This document shows, one piece after another, positions 493 to 50,820 of a stretch of DNA of 64,000 nt. The translations under genes were made by a program, and so were the position numbers. The notes below the pieces were generated by a model. That model was not told where the DNA came from, made no database searches, and saw only the letters and a list, made by a program, of their open reading frames with translations. How positions within the stretch are numbered: position 1 is the stretch's first letter; each line of letters begins with the position of its first letter. Source of the DNA: a virus; IMG/VR virus record IMGVR_UViG_3300041964_000076, positions 1,498-65,497 of that record, one strand, 5' to 3'.

Positions 493-1625
493 CTAAGCTG
501 CTACTGGCTTTTGAACGTTAATCACAGCAACGCTTTCCGGTTCCTGAATGACCGGGAAGGCTGTAGCAAAGCCCTGAGCATCTAAGCCCACAGGTTTCAT
601 GTTGCTAGACCGTGCCCGAATCACACGACCGGGGCGATCTTCCCCAACGGCAGTGCCGATCGCGTAGTAGCCTAGTGTGTCTTCGACAATCTCAAACTCA
701 TTACCATCAGTGCCCGTTGCAAACTCTTCGGTTCGTCCCGTGGCAGCACAAAGTACGAGAGAACCACGCGGCTTGAAGAAGTGAGTATTAATTTGATCGC
801 GGTATCGTAGGTCATAAAGCTCCATCGGTGGCAGACCCATGTTGCCAGTCAAGTAAGCGTTGATGGAAGCGGCATCAACCAACCCACGCGAGATGTAAAG
901 GCACCATTGTTGATCGCTAGTGATCCCATTTTCTGCTTTAACAGCAGGGTTTTTTGCCATTGCTGAAAGGATCTGGGTGTCGCCAATCATTCGGTTAACC
1001 TGATAGCCCTTGTCAGATAACAACGCAACCTGGTTGAAAATATCTTCAAACGGATCGTAGGTGCCGTCTGTTTCGTACCAGCCTGCGGGGTTTGCTGTCG
1101 TGCCACCTGGATGGTGATGCGGATGTCCCAGCCGGATTAGAGATAGGAATCTCATACGGCTACTTCATCCAATTGGGAAATCGTGATCGAAGCGTTACAA
1201 ATCCCTTGCCAGCGCTGCGCTTCTGCCTTTTCGATCATTGCCAGGATTGCAAGCGGTATTGATCCAATTGATCAGCGCTCGTTTAGGCTGCTACAGGGTC
1301 GCTAGCAGCAACTCATTTTATATTGTCGAAAATCCTTGCCAGTCAACTGTCTCGCAATGTCAATCTCACCCAGTCTCACTGAGAAGCTACCAAGCAATTC
1401 GCCCTTTTTAGTTGTGGCTCTGAATAGCGGGTGCCGTCATTGGCTACGACACTGAATAAACGATCCGATCTTCGGTAAATTCGTTAGATGGCACTAACCG
1501 TCAGGCAGTAGGGTTGCACCTAAGTAACGCCGTTGCTCCGTACCAAATTGCACCATTGGGTTACGAGCGATCGCCATCGGCTCATCCGATTCGATCAACT
1601 CACGCATCAAGCTCCAAATATCCAT
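493..1625 (-). CDS. Major capsid protein (frameshifted; ORF 493-1155 is the C-terminal part)
   Basis: AGGAGG RBS and ATG at 1625 (MDIWSLMRELIES...); position after decoration and scaffold genes; capsid-like C-terminus FPVIQEPESVAVINV. Confidence 0.7.
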
Positions 1626-7838: not shown

Positions 7839-9155
7839 CTAATAAGTGGCGTAAGAAACAGCGGCGATCGGTCTATGCCGTGCATTTTTCTTGTTTTTGA
7901 TCAGTGGCGATAGAGCGTATCTTCCAGAATCCCAACAGTGGTTAAACTTATCCACGATCGCAGGCAGTATGTCACCAGCGGCATTGGTCTTGTATTTATA
8001 CAGTCTGCATTCTTCAATGGTTTTAGGGCATTGCGGATGCACAATAATCTGATCGAAGTTTCTTAGAAAAGCAATCCCGTCCTCAACCGACCCTTGCCAC
8101 TTTTCAGCCCCAACCAGCTTAGGAATGCCCGTGCGTCTGACAAAGTTAATCGTGTCAGGTCTTGAGCTATCAGCCCTAACTACGTGCTGCTCAATGCCTG
8201 GAAGGTCGCGCATCCAACGATCGGCAATCTTGTCAAGTTCAAGACCGATCGCCCATGATTCGCGCTCAACATAAAGACGGCGATCGTTAATCCATAGCTT
8301 AATTGCTGCTGTTGGATCAGCAGCAAAGCCCCAGTCTCCACCAAAGTACGGCCCATCCCAATCGGGCATCGGCTCAAACTCATCAATCTTCCATTTGCCG
8401 CTGAGTACCTGTAGCTCAGATTTAACGTTATAGCCACCCATCCAAACGTGATGGTAATAATCAGGATCGCGTGCCCGGTCGATCGCCATTTCTTCGAGCG
8501 ACTCTTGTGGCAGCTTCGGATTGTCGCAGTAGTTCACTTCAACAACGATCGCACCCTTTGGTAAGCCTTCATCCCCTCTAAAAAACTGATCAACGGCATC
8601 CGTAGGTTGATCAGGGTTCCAAGTAAACCAAATCTCAGAACCAGGGGCACGAATGGTTGGACGCAGCAGGGAGAGCGATCGACCGCTTAAGTTTTGCGCT
8701 TCTTCTACCCAGGCAATGCCAAAGCCTTCTAATGACTTAATCGAGTCTGCTGTATGGTCTTGCATCCCCTGAAAGATGATGATGCCGTGTCCATCTTTGC
8801 GCCGGATCTCAGTCGTCAAGACTTCAAAAAGATGGGAGACTCCTAACGCTTGAATCTTGTTCTCAATCAGTGCTTTAGCCGAAAACTTCAGCGACTTCTG
8901 GATCTCACGGATGCACACCGATCGCAGGTTACTATCCTCAACCATTCTCTGAACCAAGCGCTCTGCAAAGTGGTGAGACTTGCCGCCTGATCTGCCACCG
9001 TGTGCCCCTTTGTAGCGAGAGGGGGCAAGTAGAGGCGATGCCCATTCAGGCACGTCAATTTCTAGCGTTTTTGAGATGTGGCTAGGTTGCTGTCGTCTGC
9101 GTTTGTCTCGCAGTCCCTTAAGCGTGTTGACTCGACTGATGATCGACAGGCTCAC
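7839..9155 (-). CDS. terL: Terminase large subunit, PBSX family
   Basis: Walker A GGRSGGKS, WVEEAQ Walker B, FTWNP, DWGFAADP and DKFNHCWDSGRYAL nuclease motifs. Confidence 0.95.
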   Translation of the reverse strand: MSLSIISRVNTLKGLRDKRRRQQPSHISKTLEIDVPEWASPLLAPSRYKGAHGGRSGGKSHHFAERLVQRMVEDSNLRSVCIREIQKSLKFSAKALIENKIQALGVSHLFEVLTTEIRRKDGHGIIIFQGMQDHTADSIKSLEGFGIAWVEEAQNLSGRSLSLLRPTIRAPGSEIWFTWNPDQPTDAVDQFFRGDEGLPKGAIVVEVNYCDNPKLPQESLEEMAIDRARDPDYYHHVWMGGYNVKSELQVLSGKWKIDEFEPMPDWDGPYFGGDWGFAADPTAAIKLWINDRRLYVERESWAIGLELDKIADRWMRDLPGIEQHVVRADSSRPDTINFVRRTGIPKLVGAEKWQGSVEDGIAFLRNFDQIIVHPQCPKTIEECRLYKYKTNAAGDILPAIVDKFNHCWDSGRYALSPLIKNKKNARHRPIAAVSYATY

Positions 9156-26300: not shown

Positions 26301-27017
26301 ACTTTGACGGCGCAGATTGGTGCGCTGCCTTCCGGTGCTCAACCTTCCGCCTACTGGAACCTAATCGCAAACGGTAACACTGCTGTGGGTACACCCAACC
26401 TCACGGCTGGGTCAGGGGTATCCTTCGCCAGTGGCACCCATGCAGCGCTTAATGGAAGCACTAGCGCCACGCTTGCAGGGGCAGATACGGCAGACATTAG
26501 CGTGGGTAACGAAGCCTTCACGATCGGCGCTTGGGTTTATCTCAATAGCACAGCCTCTCTTCTTGCCTTCATGCAAAAAGGCTTGGGCGGGTCGGGCAGC
26601 AATTATACGGGTGCTGTGTTTGAGTATCTTGTTTACTACGATCAGAGCGCCTTACGCTTTAGGGGTGCCTTGTATGACACGACTTCGCTTAATAGCTCCG
26701 GAGTTGCGATTGTTACGGCTTCAACCTTTGGCGCTCCAGCGATCAACACTTGGTATTACCTTGTGTTCTACTACAAGCCTGGATCGCCCAATACGATTGG
26801 GCTGAGCGTGAACAATGGTGCGTTTAATACGCTCACGACCACAATCAATCATGTTGACACGGCTACCAACATGACGCTTGGTTATCGTTCTAGTGATAAC
26901 TTCAATCTCAATGGCAGGATGAGGTATGCAGGATTCTGGAAAGATCTACCAGCCGATGCTGGAGGAAGTATCGATCTTGCCTATTACTACAACGGGGGAG
27001 CTGGTCGTCCCTTGTAG
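26286..27017 (+). CDS. LamG/concanavalin A-like domain tail protein (candidate receptor-binding)
   Basis: AFTIGAWVY...INTWYYLVF...GLSVNNG...LNGRMRYAGFW LamG-like pattern. Confidence 0.8.
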   Translation: MMNLSTLTAQIGALPSGAQPSAYWNLIANGNTAVGTPNLTAGSGVSFASGTHAALNGSTSATLAGADTADISVGNEAFTIGAWVYLNSTASLLAFMQKGLGGSGSNYTGAVFEYLVYYDQSALRFRGALYDTTSLNSSGVAIVTASTFGAPAINTWYYLVFYYKPGSPNTIGLSVNNGAFNTLTTTINHVDTATNMTLGYRSSDNFNLNGRMRYAGFWKDLPADAGGSIDLAYYYNGGAGRPL

Positions 27018-36190: not shown

Positions 36191-37985
36191 TGTTGGGGAA
36201 CTACCACTTGGTTCTTGCCCTGCCTTTTTGCCTGCTCATAGCCGCATCAGCAGGCAGCCATCAGTTTCAGCTAGTGTCCTGCCACTCGTTGGATACATTG
36301 CAACCCCGATCGATGCGTCACCTGCCTAAGCATGGAGCCTCCGTAAGCCAGGTTGATTGCTGAGATTGCCTGTCGCAGTGCCTCAGCTTTGGCGATCGCG
36401 CTTGCCTCTGTGCAATCAACCAAAAGCACCACAATTTCATCGCCCCCTTTGCGTACTGGAACGTCCCCGTTACGGCAGTTATCTAGAAGAACACGCCCGA
36501 TATTCTGAAGCACAAAATCGCCAGCGGCATCGGATACTTCCTTGTTATACTGCCCGAAGCCGTCAGCATCAACGAATAAAAGCGCTAGCTGATAGCTATT
36601 GCGATCAGCTTTAGCGACTTCACGCGGGAACGTTTCGGCTAGATAAATATTGTTGAAAAGTCCAGTCAGATGATCACGAACTAGCATTTCCTGAGCTGCT
36701 TTGCGATCGCTCAGTGCGCTCAACGCCTGCCCTAACTGTTGCCCCACAATCTCAGCAATCTCGATTTCGACATTGGTCAAGGGACGATCGCGCCTCAAGT
36801 GCAACACGCCTAGAGTCTGTGTCTCGCGTCCGTAGAGAACAGAGGCACGCATAGATGGGAACCGCTCACAGGTTTGTGTAGATGTTCGCAGACCATTTCA
36901 GTTTCTTGATCCTCGCAGTAATGCACTTTCGCTTCTTTGAGCGATCGGCATTCATTCGGCATGAATCCCGCTTTGCTGCCTGCATCACTGCCCCAACTAA
37001 AGCGCCGCTCTGCGTACGATCGTGAGTTATCAATCAGAAAAGTTCGCCTGCCAGATAGGGGAAGAGTTTGCGACCCGCAACCCGCACAACATCGCCTGCC
37101 TCTTGGTAGGAGTCGCAAAGGTTGAGGCGTACTGATAACTCTGAGATCAAGTTGAGGTTCAAAACCATCAACGAGAGTCGGGTTTCTTTCTCGCGTAACT
37201 TTTCGTTGGCAGCAATCAATTTGCCTTGGGCGATTTGTTGATCGGTCACATCCAGACTAAAACCGCCGATGCATAACTCGTTGGTGTGTGGATCTGTAAA
37301 CCGAAACTTGCGGGTGTAATATTCTCGCGGCTGCCCTGTGGCATCTGGCACTACCTCAATAAATTCTGCCTCGCCGTTTTCCGCCACTAGGCGATCGTTC
37401 TGCAAGATTCTCGCTGCCTGTTCCTCATCTTTGAGAAAGTTGGTGTCATTCAGCCCAATCACTGACGATGCGGGTCGTGCGATCGCACGTTCACACGCCG
37501 GTTGAGCCAGATCATGGTCGAGTCACTAGCCCGCTTGCAGTAGATGGGGTAGGGCGATGAATCAATGAATAGATCACGAATGAGCTGATGCTGCTCAAGC
37601 CCTGCCTGATTCGCCTGAGATGATTGAACGAGCGCGATCGCCTGTGCTGCGAAGGGGGCAACCAGAGTGCTGCTACTAGAGAGACGATCGCGGTTACTGC
37701 CTTAGCTCGCTACAGACAGGCTGTACAGGGGCAAGAAGACGGTAATGACCTCGGCAATGTGCGAGATGCCACAGCAGACGATAAAGGCGCAAAACAGCCC
37801 AATGATTTGATAGAAGCGAAGGGGAACGCCTGCGAGTGAAACAGTTGCCGTGAGTAGTACAGGAGTGAGAGCGGGATAGCGAAGTAGGCGATCGCAATCA
37901 GCACGTCACTGCCGACTAACGACCAAAGTAGATAGGGATTCCAGTTGAAGCAATAACCGTGAGGCACCCAGGAGAAATGATCCAT
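36180..37985 (-). CDS. Diguanylate cyclase-like sensor: ethylene-binding TM domain, PAS, GAF, GGDEF (frames joined)
   Basis: PHGYCFNW...SDVLIAIAYFAIP; FIVCCGISH (37759-37776); KAVTAIVS; PAS/PAC LDVTDQQ; GAF; DHLTGLFN, RNGD I-site, GGDEI. Confidence 0.85.
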
Positions 37986-38723
37986 TAGCAACCAGCCGTG
38001 GCAGCACCGTACAAATGCCCTTGCACTAACAGTTGTAAGTTTGGAAAATGCCTTGCCAGAGCGATCGCCCTCGCTTCAATTGCTCCCGATTCCAGATGCT
38101 CTAGCACAATCGGTATGTCACGCCGATGAGCGATCGCCATTGCCCCAAACACAACGCATTCGCGCCAATGGTCGCGGCCATCAGTCGCACGATCGAGCCG
38201 TCAACTTCAAGAAATCAGGCTCGATCGCCAAGATCGCTGGAATGTTGGCATAACCTACGCCAAAGTCGTCAATGCCGATTGGTAAGCGTAGCTCACGCAG
38301 GGCACTCAAAACCTGCGTCGAAGGTAACATTAGTGCCTCTGTTTCGGTCACTTCACAGTATAAAAGCCGTGGATTGATGCCGCTCTTGTTGAGTTGCTCC
38401 GTCATGAAAGACGGAAACTGCAAGTCATTCAAACTTTGCCCACTCAGGTTGATTGCGTGCGGTATAGACGAGTGCTGCAAACGCTCCAGAGTGCCAACTA
38501 CAGCAGCGCGATCGATCGCCTTTAGCTGCTCAGGAGTTACGTCATTGATGAATCTTGCCGCCGGGATTATCTCGCCAGACGGCTCCCTCAGTCTGACTAA
38601 AACCTCAAACACGTAAGGGATTTCAACCCCAATTTTGAAAATGGGCTGACAGTGAAAGATCAGACTACCAGAGTCGATCGCCTGATCAATGCGCGATCGC
38701 CATTGCATGGATGTGTTCGGCAC
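37985..38723 (-). CDS. Stand-alone EAL c-di-GMP phosphodiesterase (C-terminus across frameshifts)
   Basis: QPI, EVLVR, INLS, EVTE, IDDFGVGY, K-DG, VLEHLE, VQGHLY; its TAA overlaps the DGC ATG. Confidence 0.9.
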
Positions 38724-39455: not shown

Positions 39456-40121
39456 AAGATTGAAGGGGCGATCGCCCTTCTCACAAATCAAACTGTCCAA
39501 ACGTTGCACACTGCCTAGAATAGAAGCAGTGGGGTGTAGCCATTGGCACAATTGTTTGGTGATAACGTCCAAAATGGAAACTCCTAAACCCGAAAAGAAA
39601 GAGCAGTGCTTAGAGGACTCCTTGGCAGACGAAAAGCAGAAAGAGTTGCTTCTGCGTTCGGGACAGTTTTTATTAGTCACTGGAGCGCCGAATATCGCGG
39701 CGAGATCCCTGCCACGCCTGGAGTCGTGCATAACTTATTTGCATGTCCAATCAAACCAGCAGCAGCCAAAATCCTGTTGGCAGAAGGATTTAAGCCTATT
39801 GGAGGCGCATTACCAACCCACACGATTAAGTGCAATACGGCGCTTCTTCGTGACTCGTACAATCCTCGTGGTCTCTTCGATCTCTTTTTTGATCTCTCGG
39901 ACTTTCCGCCGAATGATGGACTTTGGATCACGATCGAAACGTGCAAAAGATTGAAAAGCGACTGTTTACCTGCACTGAAAAAGCGTTGCTGATTCGGTGC
40001 AGATCTGAAAACGAGTTCCGTGGTGCTGTGATAACGAGACGATCGACATTGCTTGGCTGGATGATGGCAGCCGTTGCTTGGCACTGACGATCGCAGAGTA
40101 TCGCAAAAAGGTCGGCATCCA

Positions 40122-40577
40122 ATGAAGCAAACCGCAGGCTTCACCTTGATAGAGCAGTTGTCTGTGATCCTCATCATCACAATTTTGGCAGCGATCGCTC
40201 TACCTGCATTGTTCAATCAAGTCCGTAAAGCGCAGTCAAAACAGGCGGATGCCGACATTTCAGCAATGAAGACAGAAATCATTGAATGGTATCAGAAGAA
40301 CGATCGCTTCCCACATGATGTGCAACCCAATGTCGCTCCAGAAAACAACAGCGTACCCAGTTTTAAGGTGCAACCAGATACGCCTAACGATAGCCCCTAT
40401 GACTACGATCACCACTGCTTGCAAAAGCCAGAGGATGATTTTAAGACACGGTTTGTACGGGTCGTGTGGTTTGGCTGGGACAAGAAGCGGCAACACAACC
40501 ACGAGAACACGACAATTAAAGATGTTGGGGATGATGTTGTGATTACTGTGTCGGAATCTGAACAGTGCCCTCCGTGA
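40122..40577 (+). CDS. Type IV pilin/pseudopilin (class III signal peptide)
   Basis: MKQTAG|FTLIEQLSVILIITILAAIALP: PilD cleavage site, E5, hydrophobic helix; two C-terminal Cys. Confidence 0.9.
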   Translation: MKQTAGFTLIEQLSVILIITILAAIALPALFNQVRKAQSKQADADISAMKTEIIEWYQKNDRFPHDVQPNVAPENNSVPSFKVQPDTPNDSPYDYDHHCLQKPEDDFKTRFVRVVWFGWDKKRQHNHENTTIKDVGDDVVITVSESEQCPP

Positions 40578-48902: not shown

Positions 48903-49148
48903 TCATTCATCACTAGCATCCTCACTTTTTCCCAACTCTCGCTGCAACTGAGTATCAAAATGCTCATCGATCCAGCGAATAGATCTTTCAATAAACTCGG
49001 AACGTGTAACCCCACATTTAACCGCTAAAGCGTCTAGCCGTTCTGACGCAGTATCAGTAAGCAAAAACTGCTTAGGCTTTTTAGTTTCTCCATAGGAGCC
49101 AGCTTTGGCGCGGTTGTCTTTAGGCATATCAATTAAATCCATAGCCAA
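48903..49148 (-). CDS. Ribbon-helix-helix (CopG-like) regulator
   Basis: QFLLTDTASERLDALAVKCGVTRSEFIER. Confidence 0.75.
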   Translation of the reverse strand: MAMDLIDMPKDNRAKAGSYGETKKPKQFLLTDTASERLDALAVKCGVTRSEFIERSIRWIDEHFDTQLQRELGKSEDASDE

Positions 49149-49201: not shown

Positions 49202-49230
49202 TTGACGTATGGATATGGGGATGACATACT
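49202..49230 (+). promoter_or_regulatory. Sigma70-type promoter, divergent from the CopG-like gene
   Basis: TTGACG-17 nt-CATACT. Confidence 0.5.
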
Positions 49231-49548
49231 AAAGGTATGACAACACACCTCACGGAGGAGCGCTCAAATGCATGAACTTTGGACAACTCACAACTGGCAG
49301 AACGCTACTGAGGAGCAGATTATTGCTGCTCTTTTCAACGCTCCCCCTTTTATTTGTCCTGAAGATATGGGTGCAATCAAGCGGTTCAATCCGCAAGCGA
49401 TTCGCAAATATCAAGTGCTGTTTTACCAGGTGAAATTCCGAGTTACGCAAGCAACCCGCTCAAGCGTCGATAAACAGAAAGCGCTGCCCCTCCCGCGAAG
49501 AAAAAGCAGCGCCCTCTAACAAAGTCCCATTACTGGAACCTCACAATC

Positions 49549-49733
49549 ATGTCATTATTCCTCAAGTCACAGCGACCTTTTTAATCAGCGCCAGCATCAC
49601 TACAATCGCCCTGCCTGTTCAAGCGGCAAGCTGCGACGCAAACCATCGAGGTACTGGACGGCTTTGCTATCAGCCACCAGCAGACATTAACGGACCGAAA
49701 ACGACTGGCGGTACTGGTACACGTAACCACTAA
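49549..49733 (+). CDS. PatX-like secreted RG(S/T)GR peptide (needs a 1-nt indel near the start)
   Basis: Signal-like VTATFLISASITTIALPVQA then ASCDANHRGTGRLC; HRGTGR at 49644-49661. Confidence 0.65.
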
Positions 49734-50820
49734 CAATTAACTATCAGGTGTGTTCCCTATGATCACTCAATCCCTAGACCAGATTACGGCTGAAGTTGAA
49801 AGGCTCGAACAGCAGCGCGATCGCCTCATCCGTGAACTTAGCGGTGTCCCCACTGGCACAACCGAGGCTAACGCCGATGATATTGAAGCAGCAACTCGGT
49901 CTATCCGCAAAGAGCTAATGCAGGTTTGTGCCCGTGTCGCTAAGTTGGGCGATAGCTGCCTAACGCTGCAAAAGCTCATCGCTTATCGGCAAGCAGCGAT
50001 CGCGCAAGCCAAAGAGATTTGAAGAGCAAGGCGATCGCCCCTTCTCGCTGAAGCAAGGGGCACTGTAAACCTTTTTTGAGGATGACAATGCACTTAGTAA
50101 AGTCAAACAACAACAACGAGTTAATTCAACCGCCACTTAAGTTTGATGGCGAAGGCTTTGGTGATACTGGCGTTTTTATTGATGGTTCGCTCAGGCATCA
50201 AGTAAAAGCAATGATTCAAGACAAAGGCGTGATTGTCTTTGACTTTCTGGATTATCCAGGAACCCAGACAGTGCTACTAAGTCGGGATAACGCGATCGCT
50301 TTGGCTCAAGAAATACTTAAAACCTATGCGGAGTAAGCCCATGACGATCGCAGAACTAGCCAACAGCTTAAACGATGCCCAGTTGGAAGCGTTGTATAAC
50401 GCCTTAAGAACAAGGCAGTCGGCATCAGAGCTTCTGGAGTGCATTGCCCATCTGATCGACCAAAGAGGCGAGTGATGTACTGTGCTCACATCTATCTCAA
50501 AGATTCGCACCGCTGGACTTATCCAACGATCGCGGCTGCTAACTGGAGTGAAACTCTGAACATTGCAGAGGCGATCGCCCTTTGTCATGGGGCAAACGTC
50601 GATCGACCAGGCACCGCTGTCTTCTGTTTAGCGGAAATTACTTAGGTTTCAAGCGTACTGCTACAAACTTTAAAGACATTGCCCATTCGCTTAAAGTTTT
50701 CAGCAAAATAGCTGAAAAAAGAACTAAATCGCTTTTCTGTGCTTAGAAAGAGATATGTTTCTTTTTTTTCGCGTTGGCATAATGGAAACAGTTTGACTGC
50801 CCCCTTCACAATCTGAAACC

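Follow-up and report, generated by a model that had tools for sequence, protein, structure and literature searches.

Organization of the locus

The window, by which the whole analysed stretch of 64,000 nt is meant, belongs to a phage contig in IMG/VR, 107,563 bp long, in which genes for a large terminase, a tape-measure protein and tail parts were recognized. A short reading frame was found in a 230-nt gap separating + strand ORFs (Table 1). In the first-pass annotation it had been described as a signal-like segment ending in PVQA, followed by an HRGTGR motif between two Cys, and the sequence was found to read in this way: after PVQA the translation continues as ASCDANHRGTGRLC (window 49549-49733, +). 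Frame 0 has no stop from 49434 until the TAA at 49731-49733 and reads ...IIPQVTATFLISASITTIALPVQAASCDANHRGTGRLCYQPPADINGPKTTGGTGTRNH*. None of the six frames of the window contains an RG[ST]GR other than this HRGTGR. The two Cys residues that bracket the motif, which are present in four of the five allele types and absent from P0006 (a related protein described below), could possibly close a 12-residue disulfide loop.

Table 1. Features of the peptide locus in the window and orthologous reading frames in related contigs
Feature	Position	Strand	Details
Divergent small regulator-like gene	48903..49148	-	weak match to a PHROG transcriptional regulator
Divergent promoter-like site	49197-49169	-	consensus match
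Promoter-like site	49202..49230	+	ahead of the operon: 83-aa ORF, peptide gene, 87-aa ORF, onward
Upstream 83-aa ORF, unassigned	49268..49519	+	stop 29 nt before the ATG
Peptide gene as defined by its relatives	49549..49733	+	61 codons and a stop once 1 base is restored behind 49561
ATG and first four codons (MSLF)	49549..49561	+	one base out of frame with the remainder of the ORF
1-nt deletion, codon 5	49561..49562	+	C-T in the window; CAC in L084; CGT in the X1 contig
Remaining signal segment	49562..49625	+	uncharged hydrophobic QVTATFLISASITTIALP, then V-Q-A (small at -3 and -1)
Predicted exported 35-residue peptide ASCDANHRGTGRLCYQPPADINGPKTTGGTGTRNH	49626..49730	+	translation and signal heuristics
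Cys-x4-RGTGR-x-Cys bracket	49632..49667	+	Cys codons 49632-49634 and 49665-49667
HRGTGR motif	49644..49661	+	same as the PatX6 hexapeptide
YQPPADINGPKTTGGTGTR	49668..49724	+	homologous to [FY]xPPx5PxxTxGGxSR of DUF928 N-terminal leaders
Downstream 87-aa ORF	49759..50022	+	start 25 nt past the peptide stop
L084 orthologue	778-960		ATG start; MTFFHQVTATILISASIITALPAQAANCDPGNRGSGRVCYQPPADINGPRTTGGTGTRNH
L082/L083 orthologue	L082:3852-4031		TTG start, AAGGAG-N6-TTG; ILSRIIATVLIFASIITALPAQAANCDPGNRGSGRICYQPP...
L080/L081 orthologue	L080:5177-5371		ATG start; MLSLKKLTLTVLLPVTAIAITTTAIALPVQAASCDTSHRGTGRLCYQPPSDIGEPKRTGAGSSR
L089 intact orthologue	922-1128		ATG or TTG start

The window copy is broken close to its start. 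None of ATG, GTG and TTG occurs in the peptide frame of this copy, and the ATG at 49549 sits in another frame, which runs into a TAA after 11 codons. The caveat given with the first description, that one indel must be assumed near the start codon, was correct, and the relatives allowed the indel to be placed at codon 5, where the window reads TTC C-T CAA, L084 reads TTT CAC CAA and the run X1 contig reads TTC CGT CAA. Because the deletion falls in a polymorphic codon, a consensus artefact is as likely as a true mutation. Judged from these alignments, the window copy is either dead or mis-assembled, codon 5 being polymorphic among co-occurring strains. The exact allele of the window over the break site had no match among the public contigs aligned to the region. 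A programmed frameshift at CCT TTT TAA was also considered and was ruled out, because the relatives need no shift.

The peptide gene is flanked by two small ORFs on the same strand, and two promoter-like sites lie back to back ahead of them; these sites are consensus matches only and were no commoner than in shuffles. At the position equivalent to that of the divergent regulator-like gene, L082 has a gene with a weak RHH_1 match. By its gene layout, the peptide gene adjoins the predicted control region of the phage.

Intact alleles in related phages

Searches with the peptide as the only query were empty. No match was obtained in the 5.8-billion protein index, IMG/VR, GTDB genome contigs or JGI metagenomes, nor by tblastn against phage GenBank; the six-frame search of 401 cyanobacterial genomes gave noise-level scores, and several of its weak matches were later recognized as DUF928 N-termini. 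The empty searches can be explained by the ORF being uncalled in four of the five related contigs and by collections that seemingly hold no records near that of the window. The downstream 87-aa ORF has homologues in the protein index, P0002 (97%) and P0003 (79%), and in their contigs (L080-L084) an orthologous peptide ORF lies directly upstream of the 87-aa neighbour. No related phages were found in IMG/VR by the 87-aa ORF, and megablast of 25 kb against plasmids and of 12 kb against phages gave no match.

Six alleles are known, namely those of the window, the X1 contig, L080/81, L082/83, L084 and P0006, and RG[ST]GR is present in all of them. The ORFs of the five related alleles, all from biocrust metagenomes, are intact. 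In the diverged allele of the X1 contig, a G inserted behind 49561 and two deletions totalling three bases put the ATG in frame, so that it reads MSLFRQVTASILISASLTTALPVQAASCDANHRGTGR... P0006 is a 68-aa protein (...ALPVQVNAISPPPIERGSGRQTAYTPPSDIGGPTKGTGGTGTRNR) that was obtained by a profile search of 1.84 billion representatives; its contig is syntenic and comes from the same metagenome as L082, and P0006 itself had been called as a gene. Further large matches of the profile, P0004 and P0005 among them, were cadherin/VCBS-like repeat proteins matching YTPxADxNG and were rejected as spurious.

The alleles differ from each other by indels that are multiples of three. The dN/dS between alleles was 0.24-0.59 in the mature part, the precursors are 59-68 aa long and the motif is internal in the alleles compared. 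The orthologous ORFs with starts in relatives indicate that the gene family is real despite the defect in the window copy. As far as sequence can tell, it is very probable that these genes encode a conserved phage peptide, predicted to be exported, that derives from a DUF928 leader and carries an invariant RG(S/T)GR.

Predicted signal segment and conservation of the motif

Heuristics applied to five alleles gave a signal-type segment of 24-31 aa in all of them, with an uncharged stretch of 19-25 residues within it. Basic residues were found in the n-region of three alleles by the same means. In the read-through of the window copy and in three other alleles (L080, L082, L084) the segment ends in V/A-Q-A, with small residues at -3 and -1; the residue at -1 in P0006 is V. 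In the profile alignment the phage segment runs collinear with the signal and AQA site of DUF928 leaders, where SLPAQA is the counterpart of the phage cleavage motif.

The motif occurs as HRGTGR, NRGSGR and ERGSGR. Among five alleles its R, G, G and R show synonymous changes only (first Arg, CGA or CGC; first Gly, GGT, GGG or GGC; second Gly, GGA or GGT; last Arg, CGG, CGA or AGA). The sole amino-acid replacement is S to T or the reverse at the middle position (ACT, ACA or TCT), which the known motif permits. The flanks vary, with DAN, DTS, DPG or PPI ahead, H, N or E adjoining, and L, V, I or QT behind. RGSGR is retained even in P0006, where the linker (SPPPIERGSGRQTA) bears no other relation to those of the remaining alleles and both Cys are gone.

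With uniform codons and six frames, the chance expectation per 64-kb window is ∼0.7 for RG[ST]GR and ∼0.02 for HRG[ST]GR, so that at the scale of a scan the motif alone is not decisive. It is its invariance in five further alleles, together with the cyanophage setting, that places the motif above chance. Conservation of the motif in related prophages had been proposed as a check at the outset, and the motif was kept in all the related alleles found. Conservation in the remainder of the mature peptide is at about the level seen in the motif, and this hints at a function that is either additional or different.

Origin of the scaffold from a DUF928 leader

When 371 genomes of the Nostoc order were searched in six frames with the profile of the phage family (A3), it matched in two places, in G353 (31 bits) and G313 (30 bits). 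Both matches are the N-termini of DUF928 (PF06051) proteins, each encoded between genes for a CHAT protease and a CHASE2 sensor; this gene order was checked in these two genomes only. Close homologues of the G353 protein are entered as DUF928 domain-containing proteins from Limnoraphis, Lyngbya and Capilliphycus. By hhalign, the phage family aligned with DUF928 N-termini at 96.7% and an E value of 3.3e-10; the aligned stretch, 40 columns without a gap, extends from ALPAQA to the last Arg. In this alignment the DUF928 leader reads SLPAQA-EKQSSQQRTRTSVA-FQPPPGQGMPRRTAGGASR-TG..C and the phage peptide reads ALPAQA-ANCDPGNRGSGRVC-YQPPADINGPRTTGGTGTR-NH*, with the same spacing. The collinear homology and identical spacing show the phage peptide to be a stand-alone derivative of a DUF928 leader.

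The element [FY]xPPx5PxxTxGGxSR is invariant across distant DUF928 proteins and is kept by every phage allele, and the phage ORFs end 0-2 residues past the invariant Arg of the leader. No Pfam match to the DUF928 domain (184 positions) was obtained in the phage peptides, and the point where the phage ORFs end is where the Pfam domain starts in L090 and L040 (residue 60). The phage peptide is thus like a DUF928 leader (e.g. L090:907-1692, -) in being collinear from LPAQA through [FY]QPP...P..T.GG..R, and unlike DUF928 proteins in that it stops before the domain and has RG(S/T)GR and two Cys in the linker. From these alignments, what the phage has retained appears to be precisely the part of the leader that ends at the conserved Arg, which may be a processing site in the DUF928 leader. 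RGxGR was found in none of the ten aligned chromosomal DUF928 leaders. The first and the last Arg of the motif align with basic residues of these leaders (RTRTS, LTR), and part of the motif may therefore be ancestral.

DUF928 leaders were located in L090:907-1692 (-), L091:1474-2259 (+), L040:1465-2253 (+) and L042:1462-2199 (+). They consist of a signal, a variable linker of ∼14 aa, [FY]xPPx5PxxTxGGxSR and a Cys, and lie mostly ahead of the Pfam domain, overlapping its first residues. CHAT and CHASE2 genes flank the DUF928 genes in L090 and L091; neither was found beside the phage peptide gene. The homology with the DUF928 leader opens a rival function for the phage peptide, which is weighed below, and the ancestry offers a handle on the uncharacterised CHAT-DUF928-CHASE2 module.

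Comparison with PatX, PatS and HetN

It was reported that PatX has a functional Sec signal, that its export is required for activity and that it is cut by the S13 peptidase PatP (Alr1666) (Xu et al. 2025, PMC12756182). The motif of most PatX alleles is RGSGR, and ERGSGR is known as PatS6 (PMC7761841; PMC12756182). The statement of the first-pass annotation that RG(S/T)GR is HetR-inhibiting agrees with published measurements, since HRGTGR of the window is exactly PatX6, which binds HetR with a KD of 88 nM and abolishes the binding of HetR to the hetP promoter (PMC12756182). The phage alleles thus show two known active hexapeptides, HRGTGR and ERGSGR, and in addition NRGSGR.

Family membership was examined with the PatX model NF047413 (Pfam PF28278; accession from Table S3, PMC12756182), which has a cut-off of 30 bits and matches 83 of the 401 sampled cyanobacterial genomes. 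It gave no match at E<=10 in the peptide (hmmscan) or in the six frames of the whole record. A local HMM was built from 53 collected real PatX sequences, which consist of a signal, a linker of 25-40 residues, [PE][HE]RG[ST]GR(R) and a tail that is short or absent; it gave the phage peptide 8 bits, a score equal to that of shuffles in which the motif was kept fixed. In hhalign comparison of PatX with the phage family, only 10 motif columns aligned, with 50% probability, and profile comparison showed PatX and the DUF928 leader to be unrelated to each other. An Atlas look-up returned sub-threshold leads only (PatX cluster, 0.77; Osc7112_2153 family, 0.80). By these comparisons the phage family is not a PatX homologue, and the likeness is confined to the motif. 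Of the original description as PatX/PatS-like, the Sec-type signal segment and the invariant RG(S/T)GR stand, and membership of the PatX family does not.

The phage peptide is like PatX (Asl2332 of Nostoc/Anabaena PCC 7120) in being a small precursor with an N-terminal Sec-type signal (predicted for the phage) and RG(S/T)GR, which in PatX mostly follows an H. In contrast to PatX, where the linker is 25-40 residues long and often Pro-rich, the phage motif lies 8 residues past the predicted cleavage site (9-10 in P0006), and the phage peptide has the Cys bracket and a conserved DUF928-type tail of 19 residues after the motif. Because of this short distance and the position inside the Cys bracket, processing by PatP cannot be assumed. 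In hetR-bearing genomes patX commonly lies upstream of hetR, and in heterocyst formers it has a DIF1 (TCCGGA) promoter, whereas the present gene is on a phage whose record is without hetR, and no DIF1 promoter was found near it; the nearest TCCGGA are at 26697 and 51039. A PatP-like or HetL-like gene was not found in the phage. The pentapeptide is shared with PatS (RGSGR, ERGSGR) and with HetN, where RGSGR is internal, and P0006 has the ERGSGR of PatS. Unlike the phage precursor, PatS is of 13-17 aa, has no signal and ends in the motif; the phage precursor is longer, with the motif internal. HetN is ketoacyl-reductase-like, and neither HetN nor PatS is related in sequence to the phage peptide.

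In some genomes, chromosomal patX genes were observed as tandem arrays of two or three copies (L060, which is G397:C29:229300-231600, and L061, L062, L092 and L093). The variants RGDGR, RGGGR and RGNGR were seen next to canonical RGSGR. The patX copy upstream of hetR in the G353 genome holds two motifs in one protein.

Host of the phage

The palindrome HIP1, GCGATCGC, occurs 93 times in the window where 1.3 are expected, an enrichment of ∼70-fold at 1.45 per kb (e.g. 49817-49824 and 49996-50003). It occurs 139 times in the whole record and 6-17 times in each sister contig, where it is equally dense. HIP1 is over-represented in cyanobacteria (PMC6604393). In searches of sequencing runs, the phage DNA was found in biocrust metagenomes only. 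That the carrier is a phage of cyanobacteria is well borne out by the HIP1 enrichment and the biocrust-only occurrence, and by these signatures the host is a cyanobacterium. The host is probably filamentous.

Other genes bear on the host to varying degrees. The phage carries a gene with an ethylene-receptor-type ETR1_N domain. An IS605-type TnpB was observed in the sister contig L080 (L080:2566-3795), 65-78% identical to Nostocales plasmid copies and closest to those on plasmids of Nostoc, Trichormus and Planktothrix. Strong TnpB homologues are present in 45 of the sampled genomes, and in 37 of these the PatX model has a match too (E<=0.001); the genome with the best TnpB match (G219) shows no hetR. 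In G353 and G313, which have the nearest DUF928 leaders, hetR is present with a weak patX-like match, below the cut-off, just upstream. The large terminase (TerL) had no prophage relatives among the 401 cyanobacterial genomes, and its best phage matches (Pseudomonas and Xanthomonas phages, 45-49%) are uninformative on the host, as are the Dda-like helicase, the acyltransferase and the Dam methylase on relatives or host.

Possible function of the peptide

The exact motif, its conservation through turnover of the linker, the H or E flank of active hexapeptides and an export like that of PatX argue for an inhibitor of HetR. We consider the chances about even that the gene product is exported and gives rise to a HetR-inhibiting peptide, its scaffold being a DUF928 leader captured by the phage. 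The precursor would be expressed from the operon adjoining the phage control region and exported to the periplasm, where its signal would be removed after V/A-Q-A. It would then be trimmed by host envelope peptidases, for which PatP, which matures PatX, or an Arg-specific exported CHAT protease are candidates; it might be speculated that it is the Arg-specific exported protease that frees the RG(S/T)GR end. The RG(S/T)GR peptide would enter cells of the filament, bind the hood domain of HetR and block its DNA binding, and HetR-dependent differentiation might be kept low in the infected cell and in those next to it. Here we infer export, processing, uptake, the binding of HetR in this sequence context and any benefit to the phage. 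The fuller proposal, in which the virus encodes a morphogen mimic, host proteases free a diffusible RG(S/T)GR peptide and HetR is turned off in infected and neighbouring cells via the shared periplasm, is put forward tentatively, as somewhat short of an even chance.

The ancestry of the scaffold allows another interpretation, that the peptide imitates the DUF928 leader, as a mimic or decoy, and acts on the exported CHAT protease or the CHASE2 sensor, the motif being incidental. It would compete with or replace the host leader and so rewire second-messenger or kinase output, and RG(S/T)GR would be a lineage-specific basic linker. The gap-free alignment with DUF928 N-termini, the matches of the profile to two DUF928 genes that both lie between CHAT and CHASE2, the retention of [FY]xPPx5PxxTxGGxSR in every phage allele with ORFs stopping just past its Arg, and the presence of GGDEF and EAL genes on the same phage are all consistent with such a decoy. 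Nevertheless, it leaves unexplained why an exact RG(S/T)GR, preceded by H or E, is found in a virus of organisms that use this peptide signal, and why the motif persists in P0006, whose linker has otherwise been replaced entirely. We regard an action as a decoy with an incidental motif as rather unlikely, though it is the main alternative. It is compatible with inhibition of HetR, and both can be true at once.

Two further explanations were weighed. Phage communication peptides and exclusion genes often sit beside control regions, and AimP, the arbitrium precursor, is a phage-borne pro-peptide with a signal and a short mature part that is encoded near a control region and needs host peptidases; its active peptide is C-terminal and its receptor AimR is adjacent. 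The present gene resembles AimP in being a short phage-borne precursor with a signal, its size and layout fit a phage peptide, and it adjoins a divergent control region with small regulator-like genes, so that it might encode a phage peptide of another kind, short and either exported or anchored in the membrane by its hydrophobic segment, for example an arbitrium-type communication pro-peptide or a superinfection-exclusion factor, with a motif unrelated to HetR. This is judged improbable. No receptor-like (AimR/TPR) gene adjoins it, the neighbours being unknowns of 83 and 87 aa, and the suspected target is a host regulator, unlike that of AimP. The conserved elements are internal and are accounted for by the DUF928 leader homology and RG(S/T)GR. 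A lipoprotein anchor, which a weak match to NF033817 had brought up, is unlikely because of the Asn at -1 before Cys in two alleles. It is less probable still that the locus is non-functional, a dead remnant or a non-coding spacer with the motif by chance. The missing in-frame start in the window, other broken genes in the record (ETR1_N/PAS/GGDEF and EAL), the failure of gene callers on most related contigs and the chance expectation of ∼0.7 RG[ST]GR per window would fit a dead or non-coding locus. Against this stand the five other alleles with intact ORFs, starts, in-frame indels and only synonymous change in the motif, the calling of P0006 as a gene, and the equal likelihood of a consensus artefact at the polymorphic codon 5; moreover, loss of function can apply to the window copy only and not to the family.

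The inhibition of HetR by a phage peptide, if true, would be of interest in several respects. The best-studied bacterial patterning system of the Turing type has RG(S/T)GR peptides as its inhibitors, and how these mature and are transported is only beginning to be understood; PatP was described in 2025. A full-text literature search found no paper on a phage-borne RG(S/T)GR gene. A phage gene that yields the same peptide from an unrelated scaffold would be the first case found of a virus interfering with HetR signalling, and it would provide a natural second substrate with which to ask which proteases and importers handle RG(S/T)GR peptides. A virus would govern development in a multicellular bacterium outside the one cell that it infects, and HetR would be linked to infection in non-heterocystous biocrust and mat formers.

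Other features of the record and its sister contigs

No tRNA genes were found. The ETR1_N/PAS/GGDEF gene is split into at least four frames and the adjacent EAL gene is truncated (window 36271-37991, -, and 38181-38723, -). A type IV pilin-like gene is present at window 40074-40577 (+), with an N_methyl match just below the Pfam cut-off. Three terminase-like genes occur in the 107-kb record (G000:C1:92885-93907, -; 105033-106490, +; window 7839-9155, -), and poly-C runs of 10-46 nt were observed near its end (G000:C1:100233-103175); this end may have been joined wrongly or may belong to a second phage. The sister contigs L080 (6996-8387) and L081 (1910-3217) carry a TGT (DpdA-like) gene together with a DUF6884 gene, which suggests 7-deazaguanine DNA modification.
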